Shown here in pieces: positions 10,368 to 63,240 of a stretch of DNA of 64,000 bases. Made by a program: the position numbers and the translations under genes. The stretch is from the NCBI GenBank assembly GCA_963782715.1, contig CAWAKU010000016.1, forward strand, positions 391,425 through 455,424, read 5' to 3'. Source of the DNA: an uncultured Chloroflexia bacterium (GTDB taxonomy: Bacteria; Chloroflexota; Limnocylindria; Limnocylindrales; CSP1-4). Positions within the stretch are counted from its first letter, which is position 1. Every line of letters begins with the position of its first letter. The notes beneath the pieces were generated by a model. It saw only the letters and a list, made by a program, of their open reading frames with translations, was not told where the DNA came from and searched no databases.

Positions 10368-10386
10368 CAGGTTTGGCGGAGGCTGG

Positions 10387-10932: not shown

Positions 10933-11005
10933 CCTGTTGGTCTTCCCTTCGTTCGCGGCCGAGCCCGTCCATGGGGTCGGCCAGTGGCTTGGTCTTGACC
11001 TCCAG

Positions 11006-21280: not shown

Positions 21281-21355
21281 CCTGTCGTGAACCCCTAACT
21301 AACGCTCGTTAGGGGCAAGAGACTAGGGATGTGGCGGGCGTCCGTCAAGGTCCCC

Positions 21356-22135: not shown

Positions 22136-22146
22136 CAGTCGCCCGG

Positions 22147-22938: not shown

Positions 22939-22967
22939 CGGCTGTCTCCTCGCTGCGCGCTCGGCGA

Positions 22968-23777: not shown

Positions 23778-23850
23778 GGCGGTCTCGCCGCCGCCGCTCG
23801 CCGGCGTGTCGCTCCTCGCGGTCTCGGTCACGAACGCTCCTCGACTTCGT

Positions 23851-24204: not shown

Positions 24205-25008
24205 GGGATCACCTCCCGTGCGGTCTCGATGGCGCCGGCCCTTGCCCGCGCGACGGCTTCGGTCGAACGATAGAAGTCCAGCATGGCGGTCGCGCACAGG
24301 TCGGGTCGCTCGTTGGTGAGGTCGTGCCCGGCACCGGGAGCGACGAACAGCCGCCCGTCACGGACGGTGCGCGCGAGGTCAGCCGCCTGGTCCACCGGCA
24401 CCAGCGGATCGCGGTCGCCGCACATCACCAGGGTCGGCGCAGTGATCCCGTGGATCTCTGCGGGCGTCATCAGCGGCTGAGCAGCGACATCGGCGGCGAC
24501 GGCGCGGACGAGGTCGCGCCAGGCACCCGGCCCCTGGGTCCCGTCCAGCTTGGCCAGATCGGCCGCCCAATCCGGCTCGTCGCGCTCGATCCGGGCGGGG
24601 TCCATCAGCCGGCGCACGACCGATGCCCGCGGCTCACGCGCGGTCGCGATCCCGGCGACCACCAGCGTCCGCAGCCTGGCCGGGCGGCGGGCGGCGAAAC
24701 CCGAGCGCCGTCATCCCGCCCATCGAATAGCCGACGAGATGGAACGTGCCGAGACCCAGGGCGTCCACGAACGCCTCGAGATCATCGACCAGCCAGTCGG
24801 CACGGAAGCCGCGCGCGACATCCCAGCGGGTCCGGCCGTGGCCACGGGCGTCGGGCATGATCACCTGGAACGCGGCGGCCATCCCGGCCAGCTGGCGGCC
24901 GAAGGTGTAGGTCGCGGTCGTTGCCGCGCCGTGGGCGATGACCAGGGGCGGGCCCGCACCGCGGATCTCGTAGCCGATGTCGAGGTCGTTGGCGCGGATC
25001 GTCGGCAT
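24201..25008 (-). pseudogene. Alpha/beta-hydrolase (3-oxoadipate enol-lactonase-like) interrupted by a single-nt frameshift near 24700
   Basis: The N-terminal half (HGAATTA...FHLVGYSMGGMTALGF, nucleophile elbow GYSMGG) is in ORF 24634..25008. The C-terminal half (AARRP...LVVAGIATAREP...APGAGHDLTNERPD) is in ORF 24201..24662. The frames join if one base is removed from a G/C run at about 24700. Confidence 0.6.
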
Positions 25009-25020
25009 GGTCCGCCGATG

Positions 25021-46262: not shown

Positions 46263-46784
46263 ATGACGGCCCTCCCCCGCCACATCGTCATCACCGGGCT
46301 GATGGGCGCCGGCAAGACGACCGTCGGCCGCGCCCTGGCCGAGCGGCTCGGCCGGACGTGGCGCGATTCCGACGCGGAGATCGAGGCGGACACCGGCCTG
46401 ACCGTCCGCGAGCTGCGCGACCGCGAGGGGGTGGACGCGATGCACGCCCGCGAGGCGGGCCAGCTCCTCGACGCGCTCGCGAGTCCCGAACCCGGCATCA
46501 TCAGCGCGGCGGCCAGCGTCGTGGAGGCGGAGGCGTGCAGGATCGCGATGGCGGGACCGGATGTGGCGGTCGTCTGGTTGCGTGCGGCGCCCGAGGTCCT
46601 CGCCGAGCGGTTCGCGTCGGCCGACGACCATCGACCCGCCTACGGCGAATCAACGACGGCCTTTCTCGCCGACCAGGCTGCCATCCGCGAGCCACTCGCA
46701 GCCGCGATCGGCGCCCGCTTCGTCGACGTCGACGGCCTCTCGGAGCCCGAGGTCGTCGCGCGCGTGGTTGATGCTCTCGACTAG
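46263..46784 (+). CDS. aroK: Shikimate kinase
   Basis: 173 aa from MTALPRHIVITGLMGAGKTTVGRALAERLG (P-loop), followed by the DSD and LVD regions typical of AroK. Confidence 0.75.
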   Translation: MTALPRHIVITGLMGAGKTTVGRALAERLGRTWRDSDAEIEADTGLTVRELRDREGVDAMHAREAGQLLDALASPEPGIISAAASVVEAEACRIAMAGPDVAVVWLRAAPEVLAERFASADDHRPAYGESTTAFLADQAAIREPLAAAIGARFVDVDGLSEPEVVARVVDALD

Positions 46785-46793
46785 CATCGGGCG

Positions 46794-47864
46794 ATGACCG
46801 CCCGGACACCGCTCATCCTCGACGTCGACACCGGCATCGACGACAGCCTAGCGCTCCTGTACGCCGCCGCCTCGCCCGACGCCGAGATCGTCGCCGCGAC
46901 GTGCGTGTCGGGCAACGTCCCAGCCCGCCAGGTCGCGATCAACACCCGGGCGATCCTCGAACTGGCTGGCCGGACGGACATCGAGGTCGCGCTCGGGCGC
47001 GAGATCCCGCTCGTGCGAGCCCTCGAGACGACAGAGGAGACGCACGGACCACAGGGGCTCGGCCACGCCGAGCTGCCGCCGCCGTCCGCGGCCCTGTCCG
47101 ACCGGCACGCCGTGGACCTCATCCTCGAGGAGGCGCGACGGCGTCCGGGCGAGATCGTGCTCATCACCCTCGGCCCATTGACCAACCTCGCGATGGCCGT
47201 TCTGCGTGAGCCGGGCCTGCCGCGCCTGCTCAAGGGCTACACCCTGATGGGCGGAGCGTTCGGCGTCCCGGGCAACTCGACACCGACCAACGAGTGGAAC
47301 ATCCACTGCGACCCGGACGCCGCGAGGATCGTCTTCCGTGCCTGGGCCGAGGCACGCGAAGCCGACCCGTCGATCCCGCGGCCGCTCGCGCTCGGCCTCG
47401 ACGTCACCGAACAGGCGCGGATCCTGCCCGACGACGTCGTCCGGTTGGCGCGGCGCGCCGGCAGCACCCCCGACGATTCGATCGCCCTGTCGCGCGGCGA
47501 GGACCCGATGCTGGCAACTCGGTCCGTGGCCAGCAACCCGATCGTCCGCTACGTGGCCGACGCGCTCCGCTACTACATGGAATTCCACGCCCGATACGAC
47601 GGCTTCTACGGGGCGTTCATCCACGACCCGCTGGCGGTCGCGGCCGCGCTCGACCGCAGCCTCGTCACGACCGAGCCGCTGTACGTCGACGTCGAGACAC
47701 GCGGCGAGCTGACGACCGGGATGACCGTCGCGGATCGGCGACACCTCACGGGCAAGCCCCCGAACCTCGACGTCGCGGTCACAGCGAACGTCGCCGAGTT
47801 CCTCGACCGCTTCATCGAGCGCGTCGGCGGGCTGGCGGCGGACCACTCGGACATGTCAGGCTAG
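46794..47864 (+). CDS. Inosine-uridine-preferring nucleoside hydrolase family protein (IUNH; candidate queuosine/nucleoside salvage hydrolase)
   Basis: LILDVDTGIDDSLALLYA (DxDxxxDD Ca2+ site), the ITLGPLTNLA loop, and conserved Asn/His (NEWNIHCD) and FIHDPLAVAAA motifs. Confidence 0.9.
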   Translation: MTARTPLILDVDTGIDDSLALLYAAASPDAEIVAATCVSGNVPARQVAINTRAILELAGRTDIEVALGREIPLVRALETTEETHGPQGLGHAELPPPSAALSDRHAVDLILEEARRRPGEIVLITLGPLTNLAMAVLREPGLPRLLKGYTLMGGAFGVPGNSTPTNEWNIHCDPDAARIVFRAWAEAREADPSIPRPLALGLDVTEQARILPDDVVRLARRAGSTPDDSIALSRGEDPMLATRSVASNPIVRYVADALRYYMEFHARYDGFYGAFIHDPLAVAAALDRSLVTTEPLYVDVETRGELTTGMTVADRRHLTGKPPNLDVAVTANVAEFLDRFIERVGGLAADHSDMSG

Positions 47865-47931
47865 TAAGGGAAGGGAGTTCGACGCGGTCCGAGTCGGGCG
47901 GGCGGCGTCACCACAACGTGGAGGGCGATCC

Positions 47932-48786
47932 GTGGCCATCAGCTGGGGCCGGTTCGATACTCGGACAGTCGTCCTCATTCCGATCGCGATGGCGATCAAC
48001 ATCGTGCTCGGCCAGACCGTGGCGTCCGTGCTCAAGGTCCCCATCTACATGGACTCGATCGGGACCATCCTGGTCGGCGTCCTGGCTGGCCCGATCCCGG
48101 GCCTGGTCACGGGCATCCTGACCAACGTCGTCTGGACGTACATCATCCCAGCCCCCTTCCACTCCGATTTCGCGGCGCCGTTCGCCATCGTGGCAGCGTG
48201 GATCGGGCTGTTCTCCGGGCTCGTCGCACAGTGGGGCTTCTTCAAGAGCCGCCCGAATGCAAGCTGGCCCAAGATCGCGGGTGCCGCGCTGCTGGTCATC
48301 CTCGTCCTCGGTGGGATCGGCTACTACGGATTCCTGCCGTTCTACACGGATGGGACGTTCACGTTCTTCGGCGACACCTCGGACGCCTCGCCCGTCTTCG
48401 TCCTGCTCGGCTATCTCATCGCGCTGCTGGTTATCGGGGCGATCATCGGGCTCATCGCCCTGCTGGTCATCCGGCGTGATCTCGGCGTCGCGTATGTCGC
48501 CATCGCCGGTCTCATCTGCGGCATCGTGTCGGCGATCATCTCGGCGCCGATCGCGGCCGTCGTGTTCGGCGGCGTGACCGGGTCCGGGACGGACCTCCTC
48601 GTCGCCGCATTCCAGCAGGGGGGCAGCGACCTCCAGAACGCGGTCCTCAAGCAGGGCCTCATCTCCGACCCGATCGACAAGACCCTGACGTTCTTCATCG
48701 TCTTCGTCCTCCTCCAGACGCTGTCCCGGCGGTTCGTCGCGCGGTTCCCGCAAGGCGAGAAGGCGCTCGGACTGGAGGGCGAATAG
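47932..48786 (+). CDS. ECF-transporter substrate-specific (S) component
   Basis: 284 aa and 6-7 TM, of typical ECF-S size and hydrophobicity. GTG start with a GGAGGG SD. Immediately precedes the EcfT, EcfA1 and EcfA2 genes. Confidence 0.7.
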   Translation: MAISWGRFDTRTVVLIPIAMAINIVLGQTVASVLKVPIYMDSIGTILVGVLAGPIPGLVTGILTNVVWTYIIPAPFHSDFAAPFAIVAAWIGLFSGLVAQWGFFKSRPNASWPKIAGAALLVILVLGGIGYYGFLPFYTDGTFTFFGDTSDASPVFVLLGYLIALLVIGAIIGLIALLVIRRDLGVAYVAIAGLICGIVSAIISAPIAAVVFGGVTGSGTDLLVAAFQQGGSDLQNAVLKQGLISDPIDKTLTFFIVFVLLQTLSRRFVARFPQGEKALGLEGE

Positions 48787-48860
48787 ACGCCGCCGCGTCG
48801 GCCCGGGTCATCCAGGCCGACGACCTCGAGCCGGACGATGCCGCCTTCATCGCCCGGCTC

Positions 48861-49618
48861 GTGCCCGCCACGCCCAGCCGCTACCACCGCCTCAACCCGC
48901 TGACCAAGGCCGTCATCGCGACGGTCGCCTCGGTCGGGGCGTTCGTGCTGGGCGGCTACATCGGGCCCATCGTCATCGTGGCGATCATGCTGGCCCTGGC
49001 GACATCGGCCGGCGTCCTGCCGCGTCTGGCCCGTGCCTCGTTCCTGCTGACCCTGCCGATCGCGATCTCGGTCACGCTGGTCAGCGTCTTCACCCGGGCG
49101 GGCACGACGGTCATCTTCCAGATCGGCCCGTTCGACGCCACCGTCGAAGGAGTCGACTTCGCGGCCCAGACCATCCTCCGCCTGTTCGCGATCTCGACCT
49201 CGATCGGGCTGTTCATCCTGACCACGGCGCCACGGGCCTTCGTCCTCGACCTCGAACGGCGCGGGGTGTCGCCGCGGGCCGCGTTCATCGCGGTCGCGAC
49301 CATCGAGGCCGTGCCCGACGCTGCGTCGAGCGGGCGGCGGTCATCGGCGAGAGCCAGCGGGCGCGCGGGATGGACACCGAGGGCAGCCTCCGGGCCAGGC
49401 TCCGAGGCCTCCTGCCATTGGTCGGACCGGTCGTCCTGACCTCGCTGACCGATGTCGAGGAACGCAGCCTGGCCCTCGAGACGCGCGCCTTCAGCCGACC
49501 CGGCAAGCGGCATCTCCTCTGGGCGATGCCCGATAGGACCTGGGAGCGCGTCCTGCGCTGGGTGCTGCTGGCCGGCTTCGTGGGGCTCGTCGCCATCCGC
49601 ATAGCCGGGCTCCTGTAG
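48861..49618 (+). pseudogene. ecfT: ECF transporter transmembrane (T) component EcfT/CbiQ, interrupted by a 1-nt deletion at about 49325
   Basis: N-terminal 155 aa (HRLNPLTKAV...) are in frame 48861. The conserved C-terminus (VERAAVIGESQRARGMDTEGSLRARLRGLLPLVGPVVLTSL...EERSLALETRAF) is in ORF 49370..49618. Restoring one G in GCTGCG-GTCGAG joins the two frames. Confidence 0.7.
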
Positions 49619-49622
49619 TCGC

Positions 49623-50435
49623 GTGCTGCGCTTCGAGTCGGTGTCCTACCGGTACGCGGGCTATGCCAAGGCCGTCCTCCACGACATCGACCTGACCCTC
49701 GGCGACGGCGAGATCGTCGGCGTCGTCGGGGCCAACGAGGCGGGCAAGTCGACGCTCTGCCTCGTCGCGTCGGGGCTCGCCCCCGGCTCGATCGGCGGCG
49801 GCCTGACTGGGACCGTCAGCATCGACGGCGCATCGATGGCCGGACGGCCCCTCCACGAGTTCGCGACCCGCGTCGGCATCGCATTCCAGAACCCGGCGAC
49901 GCAGCTGAGCGGCGTGACCGGCTCGGTCTTCGAGGAGGTCGCGCTCGGCCCGATGAACCTCGGGCTGGCGGCTCGCGACACCGTCGCACGGACCAAGGCC
50001 GCGCTCGAGACACTCGGGATCGGCGCCCTCGCCGAACGGGAACCGCGGCGGCTGTCCGGCGGCCAGGCGCAGCTCGTCGTCATCGCATCGCTCCTCGCGA
50101 TGCGACCGGCACATCTGGTGCTCGATGAGCCGACCGCCCAGCTCGACCCCGAAGGGACGCGCCTCGTCGGGCAAGCCCTGCGGGACCTCGCAGCGACCGG
50201 CACGGCGCTCCTCGTCGTCGAACACAAGGCGGATCTGCTCGACGATCTATGCGACCGGATCGCCGTCATCGACCAGGGGCGGATCGTCCTGCACGGCCCG
50301 ACCGACGTGGTCTTCGGCGACGAACGGCTCGAGGCGTGGGGTGTCGACGCGCCATCCCGGGTCCGGCTCGGGCGGCTGTTCGTCGGCCGGGGCCTCGACC
50401 CGAAGCTGCTCGCGGACCCGGGGAGCGTGGCATGA
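49623..50435 (+). CDS. ecfA1: ECF transporter ATPase component A1 (ABC ATP-binding protein)
   Basis: Walker A GANEAGKST, Q-loop, signature LSGGQAQLV, Walker B LVLDEPTAQLD, H-loop VVEHKAD. GTG start. Confidence 0.85.
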   Translation: MLRFESVSYRYAGYAKAVLHDIDLTLGDGEIVGVVGANEAGKSTLCLVASGLAPGSIGGGLTGTVSIDGASMAGRPLHEFATRVGIAFQNPATQLSGVTGSVFEEVALGPMNLGLAARDTVARTKAALETLGIGALAEREPRRLSGGQAQLVVIASLLAMRPAHLVLDEPTAQLDPEGTRLVGQALRDLAATGTALLVVEHKADLLDDLCDRIAVIDQGRIVLHGPTDVVFGDERLEAWGVDAPSRVRLGRLFVGRGLDPKLLADPGSVA

Positions 50436-51320
50436 CCACGGTCGCATTCGAATCCGTCGGCTTCATCTACCCCGACGGGACGCGGGCTCTATCCGGGCTC
50501 GACCTTGCCATCGGAGCCGGTGAATGCGTCGCCATCGTCGGTCAGAACGGCAGCGGCAAGTCGACCATGGTCCGCCACCTGGACGGGCTGCTCCGGCCGC
50601 ACGGAGGGCCGCGTCCTGCACGACGGTGTCGACATCGCCGAGGTCCGCGTCGCCGCGCTGGCGGCCCGCGTCGGGATCGTGTTCCAGAACCCGGACCGGC
50701 AGATCTTCGCGGGCAAAGTCCGGGCGGAGGTCGAGTTCGGCCCGAAGATCCTGGGGCTCTCGAGCGCCGACGCCGCGGGAGCCGCGACCGCGGCGCTCGA
50801 GGCAGTCGGCCTGGCCGACCTGGCCGATGCGAATCCGTACGACCTGGGCTATTCGAGGCGCAAGCTCCTGACCCTGGCATCCGTCCTGGCCATGGCGACC
50901 CCGGTCGTCGTCCTCGACGAGCCGACGACCGGCCAGGACGCGCGTGGCGTGGCCCGGATCCGGCAGGTCATCGCCGACCTGGATGCGGCCGGCCGCACGG
51001 TCATCCTGATCAGCCACGACATGCGCTTCGTGGCCGAGACGGTCGGCCGGATCGTCGTCATGCGCGACGGACGTGTCGTCGGCGACGGCAGCCCGGCGGA
51101 GGTGTTCGCCGAGACCAGCTGGCCGACCCTGCGGTCGACCTATCTCGAGCCACCATTCGCGGCACGGGTCGGTGCCAGGCTCGGTTTGGGATCGACGCCG
51201 ACGGAGATCGGTCCTCGTGGACGCCACGGCCGGGACACGGTCGTCCTGACGATTTTCGGGCCGTTGGACTCATGCCAGGCGCGTCCCGAAAGCGCATGGT
51301 TGTTGGCCCGAAGGAGGTCG
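50432..51320 (+). pseudogene. ecfA2: ECF transporter ATPase component A2, interrupted by a 1-nt insertion at about 50600. There is no in-frame stop before the downstream usp gene
   Basis: Walker A GQNGSGKST in frame 50432. The rest (EGRVLHDGVDIAEV...IVFQNPDRQ...LDEPTTGQD...ILISHDMRFV...EPPFAARVGARLGL) is in frame 50505. An extra C in CCGCACGGAG causes the shift. The 3' boundary is unresolved. Confidence 0.65.
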
Positions 51321-51323: not shown

Positions 51324-52286
51324 ATGCGTATCCTGCTGGCCGTCGACGGATCAGCGTCGGCTGATCGTGCCCTCGATCTCGTTGCCGCGCTGCCGTGGCA
51401 CGACGGTGGTCGCGTCCGGATCGTCAGCGTCGCGCCGAGTCGCGCCGAGATCCTGGGCTTGCCATGGTCGCTGGCCGCGACGACCGATGCCATCGACACC
51501 GAAGAGGCGACGCTGCGCGTCCACCAGAACGCCCTCGACGCGGCCGAGGAGGAGCTGCGCTCGGTGCGCGGCGACCTCGTCCTGGAACCGGTCCTCCTGC
51601 GCGGCCGGACCGCGAGCCTCATCGTCGATGAGGCCCGGACGATGCCGGCCGACCTCATCGTGATCGGGCATCGCGGTCACAGCCGCTGGGAATCGGCGCT
51701 GCTCGGGTCCGTCTCGGCGGAGGTCGTGGACCACGCCCCGTGCGCCGTCCTCGTCGCCCGCGACGACCGGATGGGGCCGGTCGTGCTCGCCGATGACGGC
51801 TCGCCCAACGCGCGCGTCGCCGAGGCGATCATGACCGAATGCCCGCTCTTCGCCGGCCTGCCGATCACGGTCGTCAGCGTCGTCACGGACGCGATCTCGA
51901 ACCAGGTGGCGTCCGCGTCGCTCATCGACCCGGCGATGATGGATGCCTATAGCCTGGATCCGACGGCCGAGCAGAGGATGGTCTCGGGAGAATGCGCGGC
52001 CGCAGCGCAACGGTTGCGCGACGCCGGGCTCGATGCCGAACCCGAAGTCAGGGCGGGCGATCCGGCACACGAGATCATCGCGGTCGCCCGGGCACGCCAG
52101 GCGGGTGTGATCATCGTCGGGACGAGAGGCCAGACGGGTCTCCGTCGGCTGCTCCTGGGCAGCGTGGCGCGGAATGTCCTGCTCCATGCACCATGCTCGG
52201 TCATGGTCGTGCGGGGCGGCGTCCACGTTGCCCCGCTCGCCGACGAGGGCCACGAGGATCGGGAGCTGGTCAGCCCCGTCGGTTGA
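51324..52286 (+). CDS. Tandem universal stress protein (2x UspA domain)
   Basis: 320 aa from MRILLAVDGS, preceded by a perfect AGGAGG SD 6 nt upstream. Two Usp domains each ending with the ATP-binding G-x2-G-x9-G(S/T) motif (VIGHRGHSRWESALLGSVSAEVV and VGTRGQTGLRRLLLGSVARNVL). Confidence 0.8.
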   Translation: MRILLAVDGSASADRALDLVAALPWHDGGRVRIVSVAPSRAEILGLPWSLAATTDAIDTEEATLRVHQNALDAAEEELRSVRGDLVLEPVLLRGRTASLIVDEARTMPADLIVIGHRGHSRWESALLGSVSAEVVDHAPCAVLVARDDRMGPVVLADDGSPNARVAEAIMTECPLFAGLPITVVSVVTDAISNQVASASLIDPAMMDAYSLDPTAEQRMVSGECAAAAQRLRDAGLDAEPEVRAGDPAHEIIAVARARQAGVIIVGTRGQTGLRRLLLGSVARNVLLHAPCSVMVVRGGVHVAPLADEGHEDRELVSPVG

Positions 52287-52668
52287 CGGCGCCGGCTCCC
52301 ACGACCAGCAGCAGGAACGACGTCTCGACCACGTCGATCCCGGCGATCACGAGCGCGACCAGCAGCGGCAACGCCTCGCCCAGCAGCCAGCCGGCGGCGG
52401 CCGCGAACGCGGCGATGGCGAGGAACATCAGGCGCACGCCGCGGACCAGACCCGGAACGTCGTCCGTGCCGCTGGCGAGGCGTGCCAGGCCACGGGCCAG
52501 GAGCACGACCGCGACGGCCACGGACCCACCGACGAGCGCCGCCCGGACGATGGCCGGCGGGTGGATCAGCGGGTCGAGCAGATTCGCGTCCGAGCCCGCC
52601 AGCGTCGCGCCGACGATCGCGAGCCCGCCCAGCGCAATGGCGCCGATCGCGCCTGCCCGCGGCGTCAT
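52270..52668 (-). CDS. Small hypothetical membrane protein (4 TM)
   Basis: 132 aa from MTPRAGAIGAIALGG, hydrophobic throughout. Lies 3' of the mec gene on the same strand. Confidence 0.4.
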   Translation of the reverse strand: MTPRAGAIGAIALGGLAIVGATLAGSDANLLDPLIHPPAIVRAALVGGSVAVAVVLLARGLARLASGTDDVPGLVRGVRLMFLAIAAFAAAAGWLLGEALPLLVALVIAGIDVVETSFLLLVVGAGAVNRRG

Positions 52669-53120
52669 CGCAGGAGGTCGACCTCGTGGATCTCGCCATC
52701 GACGATCCGCCAGCCGCGAAGACCCGGCTCGCCGGTCAGCGGATCGGCCTGATCCGGGTCGAGCGTCACGAGCAGGTAGAGCGGCTCGACGTAGATCGCG
52801 GCCAGACCGATGTCGGTCGGCGAGGGAACGGCCGGCGTGTGGGTATGCGAGTGGACGATCCCCCAGAACACCTCGTCGGCCCTCTCCGCGTCGATGTCCA
52901 GCCGGAGCAGTTCGAGCGGATCGATCTCGTAGCGGAACGGTGAGGCCTTGACGTTCCGCGTCGGAGCGTAGCGCAGGGCCGCGCCACCGGCCGCAGCCGA
53001 CCCGTCGCCGATGATGACGCCGCACGATTCGTTCGGGTACTCGGCGCGCGCCTGGGCCACGATCGCCTCGCGGATCGCACCGGGGAGCACGACGGACGCT
53101 GGCCCCGGATGCGCCGTCAC
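52665..53120 (-). CDS. mec: JAMM/MPN+ metalloprotease Mec (CysO-cysteine isopeptidase)
   Basis: JAMM motif E...HSHTHTPAVPSPTD (HxHx7Sx2D). GTG start 5 nt downstream of the cysM stop. Confidence 0.8.
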   Translation of the reverse strand: MTAHPGPASVVLPGAIREAIVAQARAEYPNESCGVIIGDGSAAAGGAALRYAPTRNVKASPFRYEIDPLELLRLDIDAERADEVFWGIVHSHTHTPAVPSPTDIGLAAIYVEPLYLLVTLDPDQADPLTGEPGLRGWRIVDGEIHEVDLLR

Positions 53121-53124
53121 CGGC

Positions 53125-54150
53125 TCACCACCAGTTGACGCCACCCTCGAGGGCCTCCTCCATCTCGTCCAGGTTGGTCGAGAAGGTGCCCGCCGAGAGG
53201 TACTTCCAGCCACCGTCGGGCAGCAGCGCGACGATCGTCCCGGACGTCATCTCGGCCGCGACGCGAGCAGCCGCCACCAGCACAGCGCCGCACGACGGCC
53301 CGGCGAAGATGCCCTCGCGGAAGACGAGCTCGCGCAGCGCGGCGATCGCATCGCGGTTCGAGACGAGGTACTTGGCGTCGATGAGCGACGGATCGAGGAT
53401 CTCGGGGATGAACCCGTCGTCGAGCGAGCGCAGGCCGTCGACGAGCTCGCCGGGGAGTGGCTCGGCGGCGACGATCCGGACGCCGGGCTTCGCCTCGCGC
53501 AGGTAGCGCGACACGCCCATCAGCGTGCCGCCCGTGCCCAGGCCCGCCACGAAGACGTCGATCTCCGGGCAGTCGGCCAGGATCTCCGGGCCGGTCGTCT
53601 CGTAGTGAGCGCGCGGGTTGGCCTGGTTGCCGTACTGGTAGGGCATCACGAAACGGTCGTCCCGGCTGACGAGGAACTTGGCCAGCGCGATCGCCCCGTT
53701 GCTGCCCTGCGACCCCGGCGAGTCGATGACCTCCGCCCCGAACAGCGCGGCCATCTGACGTCGCTCGTTGGTGACGTTGTCGGGCATGACCAGCGCGACG
53801 CGGTAGCCCTTGCGCCGGCCGATCATCGCCAGCGCGATGCCGGTGTTGCCCGACGTCGGCTCGAGGATGATCGAGTCGGCGTGAAGGAGCCCGCGTTCCT
53901 CGAGATCGTCGACCAGGTACTTGGCGACGCGGTCCTTCACCGACCCGGTCGGGTTGAGCATCTCCAGCTTGGCGAAGATCCGGACCGACGGCTTGGGCGA
54001 CATCCGCGGGATCTCGACCAGCGGCGTATGCCCGATCGCCTCGAGGATGTCGCCGTAGCGACCCCCGTGCGGGGCGACGTCCTCATGGGCATGTGCATGA
54101 GCGTGCGCGTGCTCGTCTTCGGCCTCGTGGAGCCGCCGCGGGACGGCCAT
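53125..54150 (-). CDS. cysM: Cysteine synthase B-type (O-phosphoserine sulfhydrylase CysM, PLP-dependent), with His-Ala repeat N-terminal tail
   Basis: PLP lysine motif PTGSVKDR, TSGNTGIALA, GTGGT. The start is placed directly after the cysO stop, giving a 30-aa extension containing EDEHAHAHAHAHED. Confidence 0.88.
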   Translation of the reverse strand: MAVPRRLHEAEDEHAHAHAHAHEDVAPHGGRYGDILEAIGHTPLVEIPRMSPKPSVRIFAKLEMLNPTGSVKDRVAKYLVDDLEERGLLHADSIILEPTSGNTGIALAMIGRRKGYRVALVMPDNVTNERRQMAALFGAEVIDSPGSQGSNGAIALAKFLVSRDDRFVMPYQYGNQANPRAHYETTGPEILADCPEIDVFVAGLGTGGTLMGVSRYLREAKPGVRIVAAEPLPGELVDGLRSLDDGFIPEILDPSLIDAKYLVSNRDAIAALRELVFREGIFAGPSCGAVLVAAARVAAEMTSGTIVALLPDGGWKYLSAGTFSTNLDEMEEALEGGVNWW

Positions 54151-54153
54151 CGA

Positions 54154-54426
54154 TCAGCCGCCGGCCATCGCCGGGAGGAGGCGGACCTCGTCGGCAGGCG
54201 CAACGGGCGTGTCCAGCCCGGACAGGTAGCGCACGTCCTGGCCGTTGACATAGACGTTGACGAACCGGTTGAGGTCGCCGTCGTCGGTCAACAGCTGGGT
54301 GCCGAGCGACGGGTGCTGCTCGATGAGCGCGCCGACGACATCGCGGATGGAGTCGCCGTCGAGCTCGAGCGACTTGACGCCGCCGACGTTCGCGCGCAGG
54401 ACGGACGGGATGAAGACCGTGCTCAC
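54154..54426 (-). CDS. cysO: Sulfur-carrier protein CysO/ThiS/MoaD family (beta-grasp, C-terminal GG)
   Basis: About 90 aa ending ...RLLPAMAGG*. The GTG start overlaps the moeZ stop (GTGA). Confidence 0.8.
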   Translation of the reverse strand: MSTVFIPSVLRANVGGVKSLELDGDSIRDVVGALIEQHPSLGTQLLTDDGDLNRFVNVYVNGQDVRYLSGLDTPVAPADEVRLLPAMAGG

Positions 54427-55628
54427 GAGGCGCTCCCGAAGGAACCCGTCATCAGGAATGGTGCCTCGACGTTGACCCCATCGACCTGGAGCGGGACGCC
54501 GGCCGCCCGGGCTGCGACGGCCGCATCCGAGCAGACCGGGCAGTTCGGGTCGCGACGCAGCTTGAGCTCGGTGAACTCGGTCTCGAGGGCATCGAACAGG
54601 AGCAGCCGGCCGGCCAGCGTCTCGCCGATCCCGAGCAGGACCTTGAGCGCCTCGGTCGCCTGGAGCAGGCCGAGGATGCCGGGCACGACGCCGAGCACAC
54701 CGGCGACCGAGCAGCCGGGCGCAAGCTCCGGCGGCGGCGGGGTCGGGTACAGGCAGCGGTAGCACGGCCCGACGTACGGGATGAACGTGGTCAGCTGGCC
54801 CTCGAACCGGAAGACCGACGCGTGGATGACCGGGATGCCGGCCGCGACCGCCGCGTCGTTGAGGATGTAGCGCGTCTCGAAGGTGTCGGTGCCGTCGAGG
54901 ATGACGTCGTAGCCGGCGATGATCCGCTCGACGTTGGCCGCGACGAGCATCTCCTCGTGGGCGACGACCTTGATCTCCGGGTTGAGCGCATTGATCGACT
55001 TCTTGGCCGATTCGACCTTGCGCTCCCCCACCCGGTCGGTGGTGTGGACGATCTGGCGCTGGAGATTGCTGACATCGACGACATCGAAGTCGACGATGCC
55101 GATGGTGCCGACGCCCGCCGCGGCGAGGTAGAGCGAGGCCGGCGAACCGAGTCCGCCGGCGCCGATGAGCAGCGCCTTCGAGCCGAGCAGCTTCGCCTGG
55201 CCCTCCGCACCGACCTCGGGGATGAGCAGGTGGCGGCTGTAGCGCTGCTTCTGGTCGGCGGTCAGGACGACCGGCGTGTCGAACGCGAGACCGGCGCCCT
55301 TCCAGCTCTGGAACCCGCCCGACATGGAGGCGACATCGGTGTAACCCATCTCGGCGAGGGTCTGGCCGGCGAACAGCGAGCGGACGCCACCGGCGCAATA
55401 GAGGATCACCGGCGCGTCGCGGTCGGGCGCGATGCCCTCGATCTGCTGCTCGATGTAGGACTTGGAGACGTGGCGGGCGCCGGGCAGGTGGCCCTGCTCC
55501 CACTCGGACGCCTCGCGGACGTCGACGATGGTCGCGCCGCCCGCGGGGAGGGCGTCGACCTCCTGCGGGCTGACTTCTCTGATCTGCGCGCGCGCCTCGC
55601 GAAGGAGGTCGGCATAGGACTTCGGCAT
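54423..55628 (-). CDS. moeZ: Sulfur-carrier adenylyltransferase/sulfurtransferase MoeZ-like, with an N-terminal rhodanese domain followed by the ThiF/MoeB E1 domain
   Basis: Rhodanese active site PVILYCAGGVRS at residues about 80-90. E1 domain follows with YSRHLLIPEVGAEGQAKLLGSKALLIGAGGLGSP and Zn site CYRC...CPVC. Confidence 0.85.
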   Translation of the reverse strand: MPKSYADLLREARAQIREVSPQEVDALPAGGATIVDVREASEWEQGHLPGARHVSKSYIEQQIEGIAPDRDAPVILYCAGGVRSLFAGQTLAEMGYTDVASMSGGFQSWKGAGLAFDTPVVLTADQKQRYSRHLLIPEVGAEGQAKLLGSKALLIGAGGLGSPASLYLAAAGVGTIGIVDFDVVDVSNLQRQIVHTTDRVGERKVESAKKSINALNPEIKVVAHEEMLVAANVERIIAGYDVILDGTDTFETRYILNDAAVAAGIPVIHASVFRFEGQLTTFIPYVGPCYRCLYPTPPPPELAPGCSVAGVLGVVPGILGLLQATEALKVLLGIGETLAGRLLLFDALETEFTELKLRRDPNCPVCSDAAVAARAAGVPLQVDGVNVEAPFLMTGSFGSAS

Positions 55629-55792
55629 GGGTGGATGGGCTCCGGTGTTCGACGGGCTGGTCGCCGGGAGTGGCGCCAGGGCGGTGGAAGAGTGGTCGGT
55701 GGATGGCCGCGGACGGTCCGCGACGGCGACGAGCCGGCGTCAGGCCGGCGGCAGACACCTGCAGCGGCGCTCGTTCCGCAGCGTGATGGTCG

Positions 55793-56188
55793 TCATGCCT
55801 CGACCTCCGCCGCCGGCGCGACACCGAGGTCGCCCAGCACGTGCTGGAGGCTGTCGTGGCTGAGCATCGCGCACTTGAGGCGCGCGGGGCTGATCTCGAT
55901 ACCCAACAGTTCGAGCAGGTCGTCCGCGCGGATGGCCGAGACCTCGTCCACGGTCTTGCCCTTGATCTCGTCGGTCAGCAGGCTCGCGCTGGCCTGGCTG
56001 ATGGCACAGCCGCGACCGGTGAATGCGACGCGATCGACCACGCCGTCGGTCACCCCGAGCATCAGCGTGATGCGGTCGCCGCACAGCGGATTGGCGCCCT
56101 CGTACGAGGCGTCGGCGTTCTCGATGACCCCGAAGTTGTGGGGCCGCCGGTAGTGCTCGAGGATGTAGTCGCGGTAGAGGTCGTCCAT
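55793..56188 (-). CDS. sufU: SufU/IscU-type Fe-S cluster assembly scaffold (NifU N-terminal domain)
   Basis: 131 aa from MDDLYRDYILEHYRRPHNFG, with NPLCGD, GRGCAIS and LKCAMLS cysteine motifs. Confidence 0.8.
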   Translation of the reverse strand: MDDLYRDYILEHYRRPHNFGVIENADASYEGANPLCGDRITLMLGVTDGVVDRVAFTGRGCAISQASASLLTDEIKGKTVDEVSAIRADDLLELLGIEISPARLKCAMLSHDSLQHVLGDLGVAPAAEVEA

Positions 56189-57958: not shown

Positions 57959-59624
57959 CGCCTCCGCGTGCGGTCCATAGCCATCTGACGGACACGGGAC
58001 CCGTCAGGTTCGCCTGATCTGACGCGATTTTGGCGATGATCGCGGCGGATGGCGCGATCGCGGTCAGGGCAGCTCCACGGCGAAATCGATCGAATTGCCG
58101 GCATTCGGCGAGTCGCTCGGCAGGCTCGCTATCGACGAACGGCTTGCCGTCCAGGAGTTGCGCCTGAAGTGTCCTGCCGCCAGGCACACCGGACCTGACG
58201 TCCGAGAGCAACTTGGCGCTGTCAAGCGACCATCCGAATGGGAAGTGTGGGCCCAGCGGATCGACCGAACCGTCACGGAGATCGACGACATCGGTCCACG
58301 CCATCTTGCAGCACGAGCCGCGGACGACCACGTGGTGGAGGTCTGGCGAGATCGCAATGACCGATCCCGCCGCTGGCCTCGCGCCGACCGACGTCGACCG
58401 GGGCACCGTTGTCCAGCTGCCCGACCGTGTGTCCAGTGACGCGCTCGTGATCTCAGCAGAAGCACGCGAATTGGTGCACTGCGAATCAGCAACGTCGAAG
58501 GGGCAGGGCGCATCCAGCGGCGGCTGGAGGACGGCGACGATGTGCCTGTCGTCCGGTGACCAGGCGATGGCGGTCGCCTCCTCGCCGCCGGGCACGTCGC
58601 CTGCGCGGGTCCAGGAGCTGTTCGATCGCTCATAGAGTTCGACGTAGCCCGTGCCGTCTTCCGCCCGGCAACGCGCCGCCACCTTCTGGCTGTCGGAGGA
58701 CCAGATCGGATCGAAACATGAGCCGGTCAGGACCTGCGGGTCCTTCGCGTCCGAAACTGATCTGACGATGATCGACGTCGACGACGCATTCGGATCGGTA
58801 TCCAATTCCTCGAACGCGACGTGCGATCCGTCCGGCGACAAGCGGCTCGCCCCGATCTCGACCATGGTCGGTTCATCTGTCAGCCGCCGAAGGGACGAAC
58901 CATCGGGGGCCAGGAGGAACAGGTCGGAGCAATACGGGTCCCCTAGAGCACCGATGGATACGAGCAGGTCCGGGACGCCCGGCGTCCAATCACCGACGCG
59001 CCCGACATCGAGGTAGACCGCGGTGAAGGTCGCGATGCGGGTCGCGACCTTGGCTCCGTGCGAAACGACCCAGACATCGATCTCGTCGCCGTTCGGCGAG
59101 CCTGTCCGCGTCAGGTACGCCATCCGACCCTTGCCCAGGCCGTCGAAGGTCATGTTGGTCGAGGTGACCGACCCACTCGGGTCCGCGGTCGCGACCAGCG
59201 GATAGGATGAGCATGTCTGGGTGCCAGTCGGGCTGGCCGTCGCGACGGCGATCGCGGCCGGCGTCGCCGTCGGGGCGGTGGTCGCCAGCGACGTCGGCGT
59301 GGCGCTGGACGTCGGACGACCTGTGGCGGCCGGCGACGTGTCATCGACGACGGCCGGGAGCGGCGGGCGGGATCCGAACCCGCCGGCGAGGGCCGCGACG
59401 GCGATCAGGCTGACGGCCGCCGCGACGGCCAGGAGGGCCGCCCGGCGACGGCCCAGCGCGCCTGGTCCACCGACGGCCGGCCCCCAGCGGGTGACCTGGG
59501 GCGTCGCGACGACGTCGGCCATGACCCCGGCCAGGAGGGCCGCCTCGGGACCGTGTGGTGCCCGGCGGGCGAGGCCGCGCTCGATCGCGTCGTCGGTCGG
59601 CAGGCGCTGGTCGTCGTTCATCAT
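57870..59624 (-). CDS. Anti-sigma factor: cytoplasmic N-domain + single TM + extracytoplasmic TolB-like beta-propeller. The C-terminal boundary is uncertain
   Basis: ATGA overlap with the sigma gene. A TM segment (ALLAVAAAVSLIAVAALAGG) follows about 60 cytoplasmic residues, then a Thr/Ala/Pro linker and propeller repeats (SPDGSHVAFEE, WSPDDRHIVAV). The last ~60 residues look non-coding, and the end may be shifted. Confidence 0.55.
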   Translation of the reverse strand: MMNDDQRLPTDDAIERGLARRAPHGPEAALLAGVMADVVATPQVTRWGPAVGGPGALGRRRAALLAVAAAVSLIAVAALAGGFGSRPPLPAVVDDTSPAATGRPTSSATPTSLATTAPTATPAAIAVATASPTGTQTCSSYPLVATADPSGSVTSTNMTFDGLGKGRMAYLTRTGSPNGDEIDVWVVSHGAKVATRIATFTAVYLDVGRVGDWTPGVPDLLVSIGALGDPYCSDLFLLAPDGSSLRRLTDEPTMVEIGASRLSPDGSHVAFEELDTDPNASSTSIIVRSVSDAKDPQVLTGSCFDPIWSSDSQKVAARCRAEDGTGYVELYERSNSSWTRAGDVPGGEEATAIAWSPDDRHIVAVLQPPLDAPCPFDVADSQCTNSRASAEITSASLDTRSGSWTTVPRSTSVGARPAAGSVIAISPDLHHVVVRGSCCKMAWTDVVDLRDGSVDPLGPHFPFGWSLDSAKLLSDVRSGVPGGRTLQAQLLDGKPFVDSEPAERLAECRQFDRFRRGAALTAIAPSAAIIAKIASDQANLTGPVSVRWLWTARGGDDGTDGARRHLDGLVAVVGLGARRAGARR

Positions 59625-60208
59625 CGTTCGCTCTCGAGTGCCTTGGCCAGGGCCGCGCGGGCCGTGTGCAGGCGGGACTTGACCGTGCCCGGAGGGATGC
59701 CCAGGGCCGCGGCGATGGCCGTCACCGGCTGGTGGCGGAGGTGATGCAGGACGAGGATCGAGCGGGCGTCCGGATCGAGCCGCTCGAAGGCCCGGGCGAT
59801 CGCGTCGGCCTCGGCGTGGGTCCCGGGGTCGTCCGAGGCGGGACCCGGTCGGTCATGGTCGGGTGCCATGGGGATCTCGCGGACCCGCGCCCGCGAGCGC
59901 AGGCGCATCCGGCAGCCATTCACCAGGACGCGGCTGAGCCACGGGTCGAACCGGTCCGCCTCGCGCAGTCGCGGCAGATTGCGCCAAGCCGCGAGGCAGG
60001 CGTCCTGCGTCGCGTCGCGGGCATCGGCTTCGTCGCCGAGGATCGCCCAGGCCGTCCGGAACAGGCCGTCCATCCGCTCGCGGAGGAGCGCCTCGAAGGC
60101 GGCCGCATCGCCGCGGCGCGCACGCTCGACGAGAGCCACCGACCCCGGCGCCGCGGCCGCGGATGCCTGCTGCGCATCGAGCGCCACCGGCTCCATCAGG
60201 CGATCCAT
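59621..60208 (-). CDS. ECF (group IV) RNA polymerase sigma factor
   Basis: 195 aa. Region 2 (LLRERMDGLFRTAWAILGDEADARDATQDACLAAW) and region 4 (ILVLHHLRHQPVTAIAAALGIPPGTVKSRLHTARAAL). Confidence 0.85.
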   Translation of the reverse strand: MDRLMEPVALDAQQASAAAAPGSVALVERARRGDAAAFEALLRERMDGLFRTAWAILGDEADARDATQDACLAAWRNLPRLREADRFDPWLSRVLVNGCRMRLRSRARVREIPMAPDHDRPGPASDDPGTHAEADAIARAFERLDPDARSILVLHHLRHQPVTAIAAALGIPPGTVKSRLHTARAALAKALESER

Positions 60209-60273
60209 CGTGGGTCCATACCCCAGATGATGCTCGCGGGGTGTCTCGGGTTCAGATGTTCTTCTGCGTCGCC

Positions 60274-61531
60274 TCAGCCGTTGAAGACGCGCTGGACTTC
60301 CTTGAGGCCTGCGGCCAGGGCATCGATGTCCTCGCGAGTCGAGTAGACGTTGAAGCTCGCCCGGGCCGTGGCCGCGAGATCCAGCCGCTCGTGGAGCGGC
60401 ATGGTGCAGTGGTGGCCGGCCCGGACGGCGATGCCGTAGCGGTCCAGAACCTGGGCGACGTCGTGCGGGTGGATGCCGGGCAGGTTGAACGGGACGACGC
60501 CACCGCGCAGGGCCGGGTCCATCGGGCCGTACAGCTCGATGTCGGGGATCTCGCGCGGGAGCGTCTCGAGCGCGTAGGCGACGAGGTCGACTTCGTGGAC
60601 ACGAACCGCGTCCATGCCGAGCGCCGTGCAGGTAGTCCGTCGCGACGCCGAGGCCGATCGCGTCACCCACGGCCGGGGTGCCCGCCTCGAACTTCCAGGG
60701 GATGTCGTTGAAGTCGCTCCGCCGGAGATGGACCTCACGGATCATCTCGCCGCCCGACAGGAACGGCGGCATCGCCTCGAGCAGCTCGCGCCGCGCCCAC
60801 AGCGCGCCGGAGCCCATCGGCGCCAGCATCTTGTGGCCGCTGAACGCGTAGAAGTCTGCACCCAGCTCCTGGACGTCGACCGGCACGTGCGGGGCCGCCT
60901 GGGCGCCATCGACCAGCACGAGCGCGCCGGCGGCGTGGGCCATCTCGACCATCTCTCGGACCGGGTTGATCGTGCCCAACGTGTTCGAGACATGGGTGAA
61001 CGCGACGAGCTTCGGCTTGAGGCGCAGGAGCACCTCGAGGACGTCGAGGCGGAGGATGCCGTCGTCCGTGATCGGGATGAACTCGAGGTCGCCGTCGCGC
61101 TCCTGGACCAGGAGCTGCCACGGGACGAGGTTGGCGTGGTGCTCCATCTCGGTCAGGACGATGGCGTCGCCGCGGTCGATGTTCCGGCGACCCCACGAAT
61201 AGGCGACGAGGTTGATCGCCTCGGTCGCGTTGCGCGTGAAGATGACCTCGTGGCTGTCGGGCGCGTTGATGAACCGGGCGACCTTGGCCCGTGCCTCCTC
61301 GTACGCCGCGGTCGCCTTCTCGCCGATGGTGTAGATGCCGCGGTGGACGTTGGCGTTGTACTCGCGGTAGTAGTCGGCGACGGCATCGATGACGACCGAC
61401 GGCTTCTGGCTTGACGAGGCGGAGTCGAGGTAGACGAACGGGTGGCCGTTGATCTGCTGGGCGAGGATCGGGAAATCGGCCCGCAGCGCGTGCGGGTCGA
61501 GCGTCCGGACCGGCTCGGATGTCACGGTCAT
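60274..61531 (-). pseudogene. sufS: Cysteine desulfurase SufS (class V aminotransferase), interrupted by a 1-nt insertion at about 60628
   Basis: N-terminal 300 aa in frame 61531 (FPILAQQINGHPFVYLDSASSSQKP, PLP-Lys in FSGHKMLAPMG). The C-terminus with catalytic Cys loop (RAGHHCTMPL) is in ORF 60274..60738. An extra C in CTGCACGGCG separates the two frames. Confidence 0.75.
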
Positions 61532-61545
61532 CGGTCGGCGCCCGG

Positions 61546-62451
61546 CTAGCGGGCGGACTCCACGGCTTCGAGGTCGGCGCCGGCCGGGGCGACCGGGACG
61601 AGCAGCGCCTCGTCGGGCAGGTCGGTCTCGTAGCCGTTCTCGCGCAGGACCGGGCCGTAGCCCTCGTCCTCGAGACGGAGCGCCAGGTCCTTCCCGCCCG
61701 AGGTGATGATCTTGCCCTGGGCCAGGACGTGGACGACGTCCGGGGTGATGTAGTTCAGCAGGCGCTGGTAGTGGGTGATGAGCAGGACGCCGAGGTTCGG
61801 GTTGAGCATCGCGTTGACGCCCTCCGCCACGATCCGCAGCGCGTCGATGTCGAGCCCGGAGTCGGTCTCGTCGAGGATCGCCATCTCCGGCTCGAGGACG
61901 GCCATCTGGAGCATCTCGAGCCGCTTCTTCTCGCCACCGGAGAAGCCGTCGTTGACATAGCGGCTGGCGAAGCCCTCGTCCATCCGCAGGAGCGCCATCT
62001 TCTCGCGCATCTTGTTCCGGAAGTCGCGCATGGAGACGCCGCCCTTGACCGCGTCGGTCGGGTCGATGTTCGGGTCCTTGTCGATGCCCTGGAGCTTGGC
62101 GTTCAGGGCGGAGCGGATGAAGCTCGCGACGCTGAGGCCGGGGATCGAGGTCGGGTACTGGAAGGCGAGGAAGAGGCCGAGCCGGGCGCGCTTGTCCGGC
62201 GACAGCTTGAGGATGTCGCGGCCCTTCCAATGGACTTCGCCGCCTTTGATGACGTAGGCGGGGTGGCCCATCAAGGCATAAGCGAGGGTCGTCTTGCCGG
62301 AACCGTTGGGGCCCATGATCGCGTGGACCTCGCCCTTGCCGACGGTCAGGTCGATCCCCTGGAGGATCTCGTGGTCGGGGGCGGCGGCCGGGGCGACGCG
62401 CAGGCCGCGGATGACGAGGTGCTGGTCGGTGTCGGCGGTCGGGTCGGTCAC
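61546..62451 (-). CDS. sufC: Fe-S cluster assembly ATPase SufC
   Basis: Walker A GPNGSGKTT, signature FSGGEKKR, Walker B ILDETDSGLD. The GTG start overlaps the Rrf2 gene stop. Confidence 0.85.
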   Translation of the reverse strand: MTDPTADTDQHLVIRGLRVAPAAAPDHEILQGIDLTVGKGEVHAIMGPNGSGKTTLAYALMGHPAYVIKGGEVHWKGRDILKLSPDKRARLGLFLAFQYPTSIPGLSVASFIRSALNAKLQGIDKDPNIDPTDAVKGGVSMRDFRNKMREKMALLRMDEGFASRYVNDGFSGGEKKRLEMLQMAVLEPEMAILDETDSGLDIDALRIVAEGVNAMLNPNLGVLLITHYQRLLNYITPDVVHVLAQGKIITSGGKDLALRLEDEGYGPVLRENGYETDLPDEALLVPVAPAGADLEAVESAR

Positions 62452-62888
62452 GGGGTCGTCTGGGCTCCCTGGGCTAGGAGGGGCTGGATGGCACTCACGG
62501 TCGAGCTGGCGACGCGTGGCGGGACGAGATCGGCGAGGGTCATCGAATCGAGCGCGCCGGCGACGGCGTCGCGGACGCGGACCCACAGGACGTTGACGGT
62601 GCAGCGCGACGATCGATCGCACAGGTTCGCGTGCTCGGGGTCGTCGCTGGCACACAGCATCGGGGCGATCGGGCCCTCGAGCGCGCGCAGGACGTCGGCC
62701 ATCGAGATGGTCTCGGGCGGGCGGGCGAGTTCGTAGCCGCCGTGGGCGCCGCGGGTGCTCGTCACGAGCCCAGCCTCGCGCAGGCTGACCACGAGCTGCT
62801 CGAGGTACGCGCGCGGGAGGTCCTCCTCGGCGGCGATCTCGGCAAGGCTCGCCGGGCCTGTGCCGTGGTGTCGCCCGAGCTGGACCAT
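62448..62888 (-). CDS. Rrf2-family transcriptional regulator (IscR/SufR-like, 3-Cys cluster ligands)
   Basis: HTH ASLAEIAAEEDLPRAYLEQLVVSLREAGLVTSTRGAHGGYELAR, and Cys ligands C-x7-C-x5-C (CASDDPEHANLCDRSSRC). Confidence 0.8.
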   Translation of the reverse strand: MVQLGRHHGTGPASLAEIAAEEDLPRAYLEQLVVSLREAGLVTSTRGAHGGYELARPPETISMADVLRALEGPIAPMLCASDDPEHANLCDRSSRCTVNVLWVRVRDAVAGALDSMTLADLVPPRVASSTVSAIQPLLAQGAQTTP

Positions 62889-63008
62889 CAGCCGGACGCC
62901 GTACTCGCCCTTCGTCGAAAAGGCGATGGCGCCGCTGCCGTGGTAGGCCGGGCGGGCGGTCGTCGGGGCGGAGACGGGGGTCGCGGAAACGGTCAGGGGA
63001 ACGTCCTC

Positions 63009-63034
63009 GATATCCGAGTGATTTCGTCGGATAT
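63009..63034. promoter_or_regulatory. Perfect palindrome ATATCCGA-N9-TCGGATAT about 120 nt upstream of the Rrf2 gene (candidate Rrf2 operator)
   Basis: The 8-bp perfect inverted-repeat arms are AT-rich, in contrast with the surrounding GC-rich sequence. Confidence 0.4.
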
Positions 63035-63240
63035 GAGTCTACGCGGCGCCCTCGGGAGCGTCAATCCGCGGCAAGGGTCGTTGTCGAGGGACAGGGTAGT
63101 TGTCCGGAATCTGACGCCTTATCCGAGCGTGCCGACGGTCCCTCGTCCCCCGGCGGTTGCGTCGGGCGCTTCTGCTGACCTGTCCGCCGTAACGCAGCGC
63201 CGCACCGCTCTACCTACCACCCCGGTCAATCCGAGCGCGC

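Follow-up and report, generated by a model that had tools for sequence, protein, structure and literature searches.

We analysed a 64,000-nucleotide stretch of DNA from an uncultured Chloroflexia bacterium of the Limnocylindria (assembly GCA_963782715.1, contig CAWAKU010000016.1, positions 391,425 to 455,424; hereafter the window; 70% G+C). [quoted passage not shown] An earlier note on this DNA had read the group as a nucleoside hydrolase with a complete ECF transporter and proposed that it salvages queuosine or other nucleosides. All five genes are indeed present on the forward strand, near the positions given there. From the SKI-family kinase gene to the universal stress protein (Usp) gene, successive junctions measure 9, 67, 74 and 4 nt, a 4-nt overlap (ATGA, between A1 and A2) and 74 nt. 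These short junctions are compatible with a single transcription unit; neither a sigma-70-like promoter nor an intrinsic terminator was found in the operon region.

Table 1. Features of the hydrolase-transporter locus and its immediate neighbours (coordinates in the window).
Feature	Coordinates	Strand	Supporting match
SKI-family P-loop kinase	46263..46784	+	Pfam SKI E=1.2e-25
IUNH-family N-ribohydrolase, 356 aa, intact	46794..47864	+	PF01156 E=1.8e-91
IUNH-S spacer, GGAGGG ribosome-binding site before GTG start	47865..47931	+	
ECF S component, 284 aa, intact	47932..48786	+	NF045596 E=4.5e-31; PF12822 26 bits
ECF T component (QrtU-like, CbiQ family), interrupted	48861..49618	+	PF02361 E=5.6e-12 on N-terminal part
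ECF ATPase A1 (QrtV-like), 270 aa, intact	49623..50435	+	PF00005 E=9.5e-23
ECF ATPase A2 (QrtW-like), interrupted	50432..51249	+	TIGR04521 ECF_ATPase_2 E=7.4e-43
Tandem universal stress protein (Usp) gene	51324..52286	+	PF00582 E=1.6e-46, two stretches

The association between hydrolase and transporter recurs throughout the lineage. The closest relatives of S come from metagenome-assembled genomes (MAGs) labelled Candidatus Limnocylindrales, Limnocylindria or "uncultured Chloroflexia" (up to 92% identity), which marks the source as Chloroflexota of Limnocylindria type and not as an actinobacterium, and an exact-sequence look-up of the window S and A1 proteins found neither on record. A scan of one genome per species yielded 80 loci, all from Limnocylindria. 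The count of neighbours was limited to the 71 loci for which 1.3 kb or more of upstream DNA was available; in 66 of them the gene immediately upstream of S, in the same orientation, encodes the hydrolase, down to S identities of about 51%. The full set of S, T, A1 and A2 was detected in 72 of 82 loci. Because the hydrolase gene sits directly 5′ of S with this regularity, the pairing is far beyond chance, and what the earlier note had drawn from one locus is real and conserved. Limnocylindria hydrolases fall into two types, 55-87% and 33-39% identical to the window enzyme. Four loci (L005, L013, L015 and L016) have no hydrolase gene and carry a ribokinase-like gene directly after A2, whose best solved relatives in the PDB are ribokinases (177 bits). 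The hydrolase gene of L078 lies downstream on the opposite strand, and L159 has the order RbsK-like, window-type IUNH, S.

By profile score, the S component is related to the CD3073 family (NF045596) without being a member, since its 107.8 bits fall below the equivalog cut-off of 180. A Pfam scan returned PF12822 and a weak Yip1 match only, with no match to QueT (COG4708, PF06177). No model of RibU, ThiT or BioY matched, and the FolT-family model scored 26.3 bits (cut-off 60). The closest reference protein among those compared is an S component linked to tgt and Qng1 (about 50% identity, 172-191 bits). The earlier note had proposed to compare S with QrtT/QueT, RibU, ThiT and others; by these family matches S belongs neither to QueT nor to any vitamin family, and groups with the superfamily of QrtT (STY3230) and CD3073. 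The vitamin-specific grouping that the note had named as evidence against itself was not observed.

An exhaustive search of cluster representatives found S homologues in 1377 clusters at E<=0.001. Over its whole length the window protein can be aligned with relatives of 282-285 aa, with which it shares the motifs LPxY(L/M)DSIGT..GP..G..TG and FGGVTGSGTD. Most family members are about 200 aa long, and in the Limnocylindria proteins the two conserved halves are separated by about 85 additional aa (residues about 103-190), modelled as two additional transmembrane helices, 112-137 and 154-180. The AlphaFold2 model is of good quality (predicted local distance difference test, pLDDT, 89.4; predicted template-modelling score, pTM, 0.88). 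Foldseek gave its highest probabilities (0.72-0.99) to the ECF S components PanT, FolT, ThiT, BioY and RibU, all at E>0.1 and with target-normalised TM-scores of 0.38-0.58, values that are lowered by the two inserted helices. Elsewhere in the family, S is fused to IUNH (fusion call P0196), to a T component or to histidine kinases. Neighbour-joining trees recover a Limnocylindria clade at 100% bootstrap. A placement of this clade beside the tgt-linked or the IUNH-linked short forms was considered and dropped at neighbour-joining bootstraps below 20%, values for which we make no sister-group claim.

The hydrolase scores 307.4 bits against PF01156 (cut-off 34.2), covering model positions 1-296 of 297, and is predicted to be cytoplasmic. 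In this family DxDxxxDD binds calcium and ribose, followed by a Glu and Asn pair (E..N) and a catalytic His-Asp. All of these motifs are kept in the window enzyme, as DVDTGIDD, NEWN and IHDP (HDP), each at the position that it also occupies in RihA and in the Leishmania and Crithidia IU-NH enzymes; residues 219-246 form a 28-aa insert. The best characterised matches are RihA, UriH and RihC, and the enzyme falls below the NCBIfam cut-off of each of these and of RihB. The earlier note had asked whether the hydrolase would side with QueK or with RihA, RihB and RihC. It groups with no characterised subfamily, standing equally far from RihA and from the preQ1-riboswitch-controlled hydrolase of Enterococcus faecalis, which we used as a proxy for QueK. 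Assignment to QueK has been based on similarity-network clustering with validated QueK at E<1e-100 (bioRxiv 10.1101/2025.10.13.681863). Judged by the same proxy, the window enzyme does not cluster at that level; in keeping with a second mark of QueK genes, a neighbouring ECF S gene for queuosine precursors, it does lie 67 nt upstream of an S gene of the QrtT superfamily. A third mark of QueK is a genome with tgt and without queDECF; the 64 kb analysed here hold neither tgt nor Qng1.

Of the two ATPases, A1 has canonical Walker A, LSGGQ and Walker B motifs, and its best NCBIfam matches are the ECF ATPase models TIGR04520 and TIGR04521, both below cut-off; it is 37% identical to Salmonella QrtV and 38% to the A1 of Enterococcus raffinosus. 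A2 is 36% identical to Salmonella QrtW and has a degenerate ATP-binding cassette (ABC) signature motif, LGYSRRK in place of LSGGQ, a degenerate form that also occurs in the A2 proteins of the relatives L001 and L002. The canonical A1 and the degenerate A2 signature therefore suggest that the pair would form one consensus and one degenerate ATP site.

DNA alignments with L001 and L002 show that the window holds four extra single bases, two in T and two in A2. The frame changes, traced by a frame plot of G+C at third codon positions (GC3), by tblastn with orthologues and by DNA alignment, fall at 49313-49324 in T and at about 50600 and 51206 in A2. When a single base is taken out of 49313-49317 and another out of 49323-49324, T encodes a protein of 251 aa that reads IEAVPTLVERAAVIGESQRARG across the site, identical to its relatives. 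The same kind of correction at 50599-50600 and again at 51206-51207 gives an A2 protein of 271 aa, which stops at 51247-51249, about 70 nt before the end of the module at 51320 in the earlier note; the remaining coordinates of that note were roughly right. Without the second of these repairs, A2 reads through into the Usp gene as an open reading frame (ORF) of 593 aa. With T and A2 frameshifted, the transporter is incomplete as the sequence stands, and the description of it as complete holds once the four inserted bases are removed.

If the frameshifts were real, T and A2 would be decaying as a recent pseudogene remnant, and S might still work through another module. Such decay would fit the occurrence of four indels in T and A2 within about 1.9 kb, at sites none of which is clearly a long homopolymer, next to intact S, hydrolase and A1 genes. 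We nevertheless consider it improbable. Two other genes in the window are broken in the same way: sufS, a normally indispensable cysteine desulfurase gene (Aminotran_5; 60274-61560, - strand), is frameshifted at about 60.65 kb, with its N-terminal part in ORF 59621-62230 and its C-terminal part in 60274-60738, and an alpha/beta-hydrolase gene on the - strand is split at about 24.65 kb into overlapping ORFs (N-terminal part 24637-25020, C-terminal part 24204-24710). Loci from related long-read MAGs likewise contain split purK, IUNH, T, A1 and A2 genes. Indels aside, T and A2 are 73-87% identical to the orthologues of their closest relatives (L002-L004), in their repaired form they have no in-frame stops and keep their motifs, and both genes are intact in all close relatives. 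Since sufS, the alpha/beta hydrolase and genes of related long-read MAGs are split too, the four indels are most likely assembly errors, and pseudogenisation as the principal explanation was rejected once sufS and a second gene had been found frameshifted. The suf cluster also holds an Rrf2 regulator (62451-63038) and a SufC-like ABC gene (about 61549-62400).

A preQ1 riboswitch in the 68-nt leader between hydrolase and S, which the earlier note had suggested looking for, is not there: neither preQ1 nor any other Rfam model matched it, even at E<=10, and no Rfam riboswitch was found anywhere in the 64-kb window or in 9 related loci. Shuffled sequences fold as well as the leader (z-score -0.38), whose sequence is not conserved among close relatives; a conserved structure in this spacer was rejected on both counts. 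Judging by ORF and spacer lengths, the long "spacers" of other clades are probably N-terminal extensions of S. In another branch the riboswitch does occur: on the E. faecalis plasmid pCF3A-343-2 (L177 3899-5543), a preQ1-I riboswitch (RF00522, 47.1 bits, gathering score 39) lies directly 5′ of a nucleoside hydrolase gene and an ECF S gene.

We surveyed the genomic partners of S across its superfamily. Several connect it with queuosine. An Ardenticatenaceae genome encodes Qng1 (PF10343), Tgt (TIGR00430, 468 bits), S, T and fused ATPases, and in two metagenome contigs (L092 and L094) tgt is directly upstream of S. Hydrolase partners without a riboswitch are found in E. raffinosus (S-T-A-A-IUNH), in the archaeon Haladaptatus (IUNH-Usp-S-T-AA-IUNH), in three short-form metagenome loci and in Limnocylindria. 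Many loci have no informative neighbour. In the paper library searched, four papers mention both "nucleoside hydrolase" and "energy-coupling factor"; of the three listed, two concern queuosine salvage and one is an unrelated plant-extract study.

On this evidence we tentatively favour, at a little short of even confidence, a QrtTUVW-family ECF importer of the dedicated kind (group I) that works with a cytoplasmic hydrolase as an uptake-and-cleavage module for queuosine or a related modified nucleoside. The eight-helix S component would bind the nucleoside outside the cell; T and the A1/A2 ATPase pair would drive toppling of S and release of the substrate inside; and the hydrolase would then cut the N-glycosidic bond to give free base and ribose. 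In this way queuosine or a related nucleoside from degraded tRNA could supply the queuine with which tRNA is modified. With an N-ribohydrolase encoded at the locus, the cargo is more likely to be a nucleoside than a free base. For queuosine in particular speak the independent links to it within the S superfamily (Qng1-tgt, tgt, the preQ1 riboswitch and a Clostridioides difficile operon) and the finding that IUNH and Qng1, unrelated enzymes that release queuine, occupy the same position beside related transporters; in addition, of the reference S proteins compared, the one nearest to the window S is linked to tgt and Qng1. Observed directly are the identities and conserved order of the genes, the family of S, the hydrolase motifs and the lack of a riboswitch; import, a ribonucleoside substrate and queuosine specificity are deduced from them.

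A number of observations weigh against this reading. Besides the frameshifts in T and A2 of the sequence as given and the deep branching of the S tree at bootstraps below 20%, the 64-kb window contains no tgt, Qng1 or que genes and no preQ1 riboswitch. The match of the hydrolase to the riboswitch-controlled E. faecalis enzyme (174 bits, 33% identity) compares with 179 bits to RihA, and where the window enzyme reads HDP the E. faecalis enzyme reads NDP. A ribokinase gene replaces or joins the hydrolase gene in a range of loci (L005, L013, L015, L016, L159 and at least 14 of Anaerolineales type), and the CD3073 branch of the superfamily is linked to a TudS-like desulfidase, so that the superfamily is not restricted to queuosine.

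The ribokinases bear on an alternative in which the same machinery scavenges ordinary ribonucleosides (purine, pyrimidine or both) at high affinity for their base and ribose, as an ECF counterpart of the rbsK-uriH-uriT and Rih systems. Anaerolineales-type clusters have the order RbsK-IUNH-IUNH-S-T-A-A. Where enough upstream DNA is available, the hydrolase gene is directly upstream of S in 18 of 19 such loci; a ribokinase gene is also found upstream in 14, and the kinase scores above the ribokinase cut-off (TIGR02152, 360.8 bits versus 299.65). The window hydrolase matches the Anaerolineales enzymes at 199-207 bits; their S-adjacent copy, like the E. faecalis enzyme, has NDP, with Asn in place of His. 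A divergent ribokinase-like PfkB gene follows A2 in seven loci. Ribokinase in sister lineages fits bulk use of ribonucleosides better than uptake of a trace micronutrient, and the hydrolase-less Limnocylindria loci with their ribokinase-like gene right after A2 and the gene order of L159 point the same way, as do the canonical His-containing hydrolase of the window, with RihA, UriH and RihC as its best characterised matches, and the lack of any queuosine-specific signal at the window locus. On the other side, ECF transporters are typically low-capacity importers of micronutrients, the 64-kb window contains no ribokinase gene, and the S superfamily includes several members with links to tgt, Qng1 or a preQ1 riboswitch. 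We regard import of ordinary ribonucleosides as a close rival, somewhat less probable than that of queuosine.

In a third alternative, the hydrolase processes some other imported riboside or modified base, such as nicotinamide riboside, alpha-ribazole or a thiolated base or nucleoside. On a plasmid of Cetobacterium somerae (L174 5007-8375), an S gene of the true CD3073 family is followed by the gene for CD3072, a TudS-related putative desulfidase, and by A, A and T, an arrangement that hints at thiolated bases or nucleosides as the cargo of this branch; some branches, moreover, are not obviously tied to queuosine. Such a substrate seems unlikely for the window system. Among the 25 most frequent Pfam families in 83 flanking genes, the recurrent functionally related neighbours are PfkB (7) and TGT (3); no desulfidase or cobalamin gene recurs, and NadA occurs once.

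Returning to the uptake-and-cleavage module, a ribonucleoside is the best-supported class of substrate, because every recurring partner acts on a ribonucleoside or on a base that comes from one. The nucleoside half of the earlier note's proposal is well supported, and queuosine itself is a plausible candidate. A broader view could accommodate all of these partners. The QrtT/CD3073 superfamily would consist of general ECF importers for nucleosides and bases from RNA turnover that have repeatedly recruited different partners, and the Limnocylindria version would be a ribonucleoside importer. For ordinary ribonucleosides the partners may be ribokinase and IUNH; queuosine would go with tgt, Qng1 or QueK, and thiolated bases with a TudS-like desulfidase. 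We regard this view as conceivable and hold it with reserve; to our knowledge, no ECF importer for ordinary ribonucleosides has been described.

In the Limnocylindria, which are uncultured but abundant Chloroflexota of soil, the conserved QrtTUVW-type importer with its hydrolase is a testable candidate for cross-feeding of nucleosides or queuosine in that habitat. If the broader view were true, one of the most abundant uncultured soil lineages would possess an ECF importer of ribonucleosides. That one S superfamily has links to tgt and Qng1, to the preQ1 riboswitch, to ribokinase and to desulfidase also calls for caution in giving the queuosine label to every PF12822 protein with an IUNH neighbour. 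Many bacteria depend on salvage of queuosine precursors by transporters that have yet to be found (PMC11130926).

Of the genes adjoining the module, the SKI-family kinase was taken for aroK in the earlier note, which had placed the module downstream of purEK and aroK. The purE and purK genes are encoded on the opposite strand, and the identity of "aroK" is doubtful: the kinase falls below the cut-off of every NCBIfam shikimate-kinase model and reads SAAAS at the position of GGG, the canonical shikimate-binding motif of shikimate kinases. It may therefore not be a shikimate kinase. A role for this kinase as part of the conserved module was rejected because it adjoins the hydrolase gene in 10 loci only, one being the window itself and the others 9 out of 179 loci fetched. 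The Usp gene 3′ of A2 is also present in 12 related loci, and in Haladaptatus a Usp gene lies between the hydrolase and S genes (L175 4351-4803); these clusters may have Usp as a recurring accessory.

Elsewhere in the window, a heliorhodopsin gene (9525-10442, - strand; PF18761, E=7.3e-98) lies beside a gene for a fasciclin-domain protein (10390-11010). The region 425-6491 (- strand) encodes an MttB-family methyltransferase (2487-4112; PF06253, E=1.7e-207) flanked by two paralogous fusions of Oxidored_FMN and pyridine-nucleotide-disulphide oxidoreductase domains, and resembles a quaternary-amine demethylation cluster. A phenylacetate-type catabolic cluster occupies 18012-24200 (- strand; PaaA/PaaC-like, PaaD-like, two enoyl-CoA hydratases and a TetR regulator). 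Beyond the Usp gene, 52665-55824 (- strand) holds Prok-JAB (Mec-like), PALP (CysM-like), ThiF-rhodanese (MoeZ-like) and a ThiS-like ORF ending in GG; this cluster, for which L001 and L002 show synteny, recalls the cysteine pathway of the CysO type, with its sulfur carrier.

Among known systems, those for utilisation of ordinary ribonucleosides share the hydrolase with the window. Escherichia coli RihA, RihB and RihC and the Corynebacterium rbsK-uriT-uriH system have the same hydrolase family and catalytic motifs, and relatives of the window locus encode in addition a genuine ribokinase. Their transporters are of the MFS (major facilitator superfamily), NupC or binding-protein-dependent ABC types, and are not ECF transporters. 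The CD3073 family, by comparison, is the best-scoring curated family for the window S, yet its true members have a desulfidase neighbour and the order S, A, A, T, whereas the neighbour here is a hydrolase.

Closer in logic is queK-qrtT-queL, the experimentally studied queuosine salvage operon of C. difficile (PMC11477304, PMC11130926). By its published description this operon, like the E. faecalis pair, places a hydrolase gene beside a QrtT-type S gene, and the implied logic of queuosine import followed by cleavage to queuine would be shared with the window. In C. difficile and E. faecalis, however, the ECF module is shared and encoded elsewhere and there is a riboswitch, whereas the window has a dedicated module and no riboswitch; C. 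difficile moreover adds the queuine lyase QueL, and the window has no queL.

The closest counterpart of the transporter itself is QrtTUVW, which Rodionov and colleagues reportedly predicted in 2009 to be a "queuosine-regulated" dedicated ECF transporter. QrtT, QrtU, QrtV and QrtW correspond to STY3230-STY3233, listed as a "queuosine-regulated ECF transporter" (PMC6593275, supplementary file 1). Using tblastn against annotated plasmid records, we found in a chromosome-like Salmonella record the order epd, PPC-domain protein, S-T-A-A, tkt. This cluster, the sole one of its kind found, is very probably STY3230-3233, in agreement with the map position of those genes. The two halves of the window S match Salmonella QrtT with BLASTP E=8e-15 and 6e-13 at 45% and 36% identity. 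Both systems consist of S, T and two ATPases in that order, each encoded separately (in the window after the four single-base corrections), both S components carry the motifs LPxFLDSIGT and FGGVTGSG, and both match the CD3073 NCBIfam model only, below its cut-off. The preQ1 riboswitch or clustering with queuosine genes by which QrtTUVW is recognised occurs in other branches only and is absent from the window. The S insertion of about 85 aa with its two helices sets the window protein apart from Salmonella QrtT, and a PPC-domain protein precedes the Salmonella and Paracoccus clusters where the window has a hydrolase upstream and Usp downstream. A homologue of the Salmonella PPC-domain protein (37% identity) adjoins the Anaerolineales clusters and therefore ties the Salmonella and Anaerolineales systems together. 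The window system is thus of an already known kind, a dedicated ECF importer of QrtTUVW type that has a QueK-like hydrolase as its partner. It occurs here in an uncultured class of Chloroflexota and varies in three features, namely the two helices inserted in S, the degenerate signature motif of A2 and the lack of a riboswitch.

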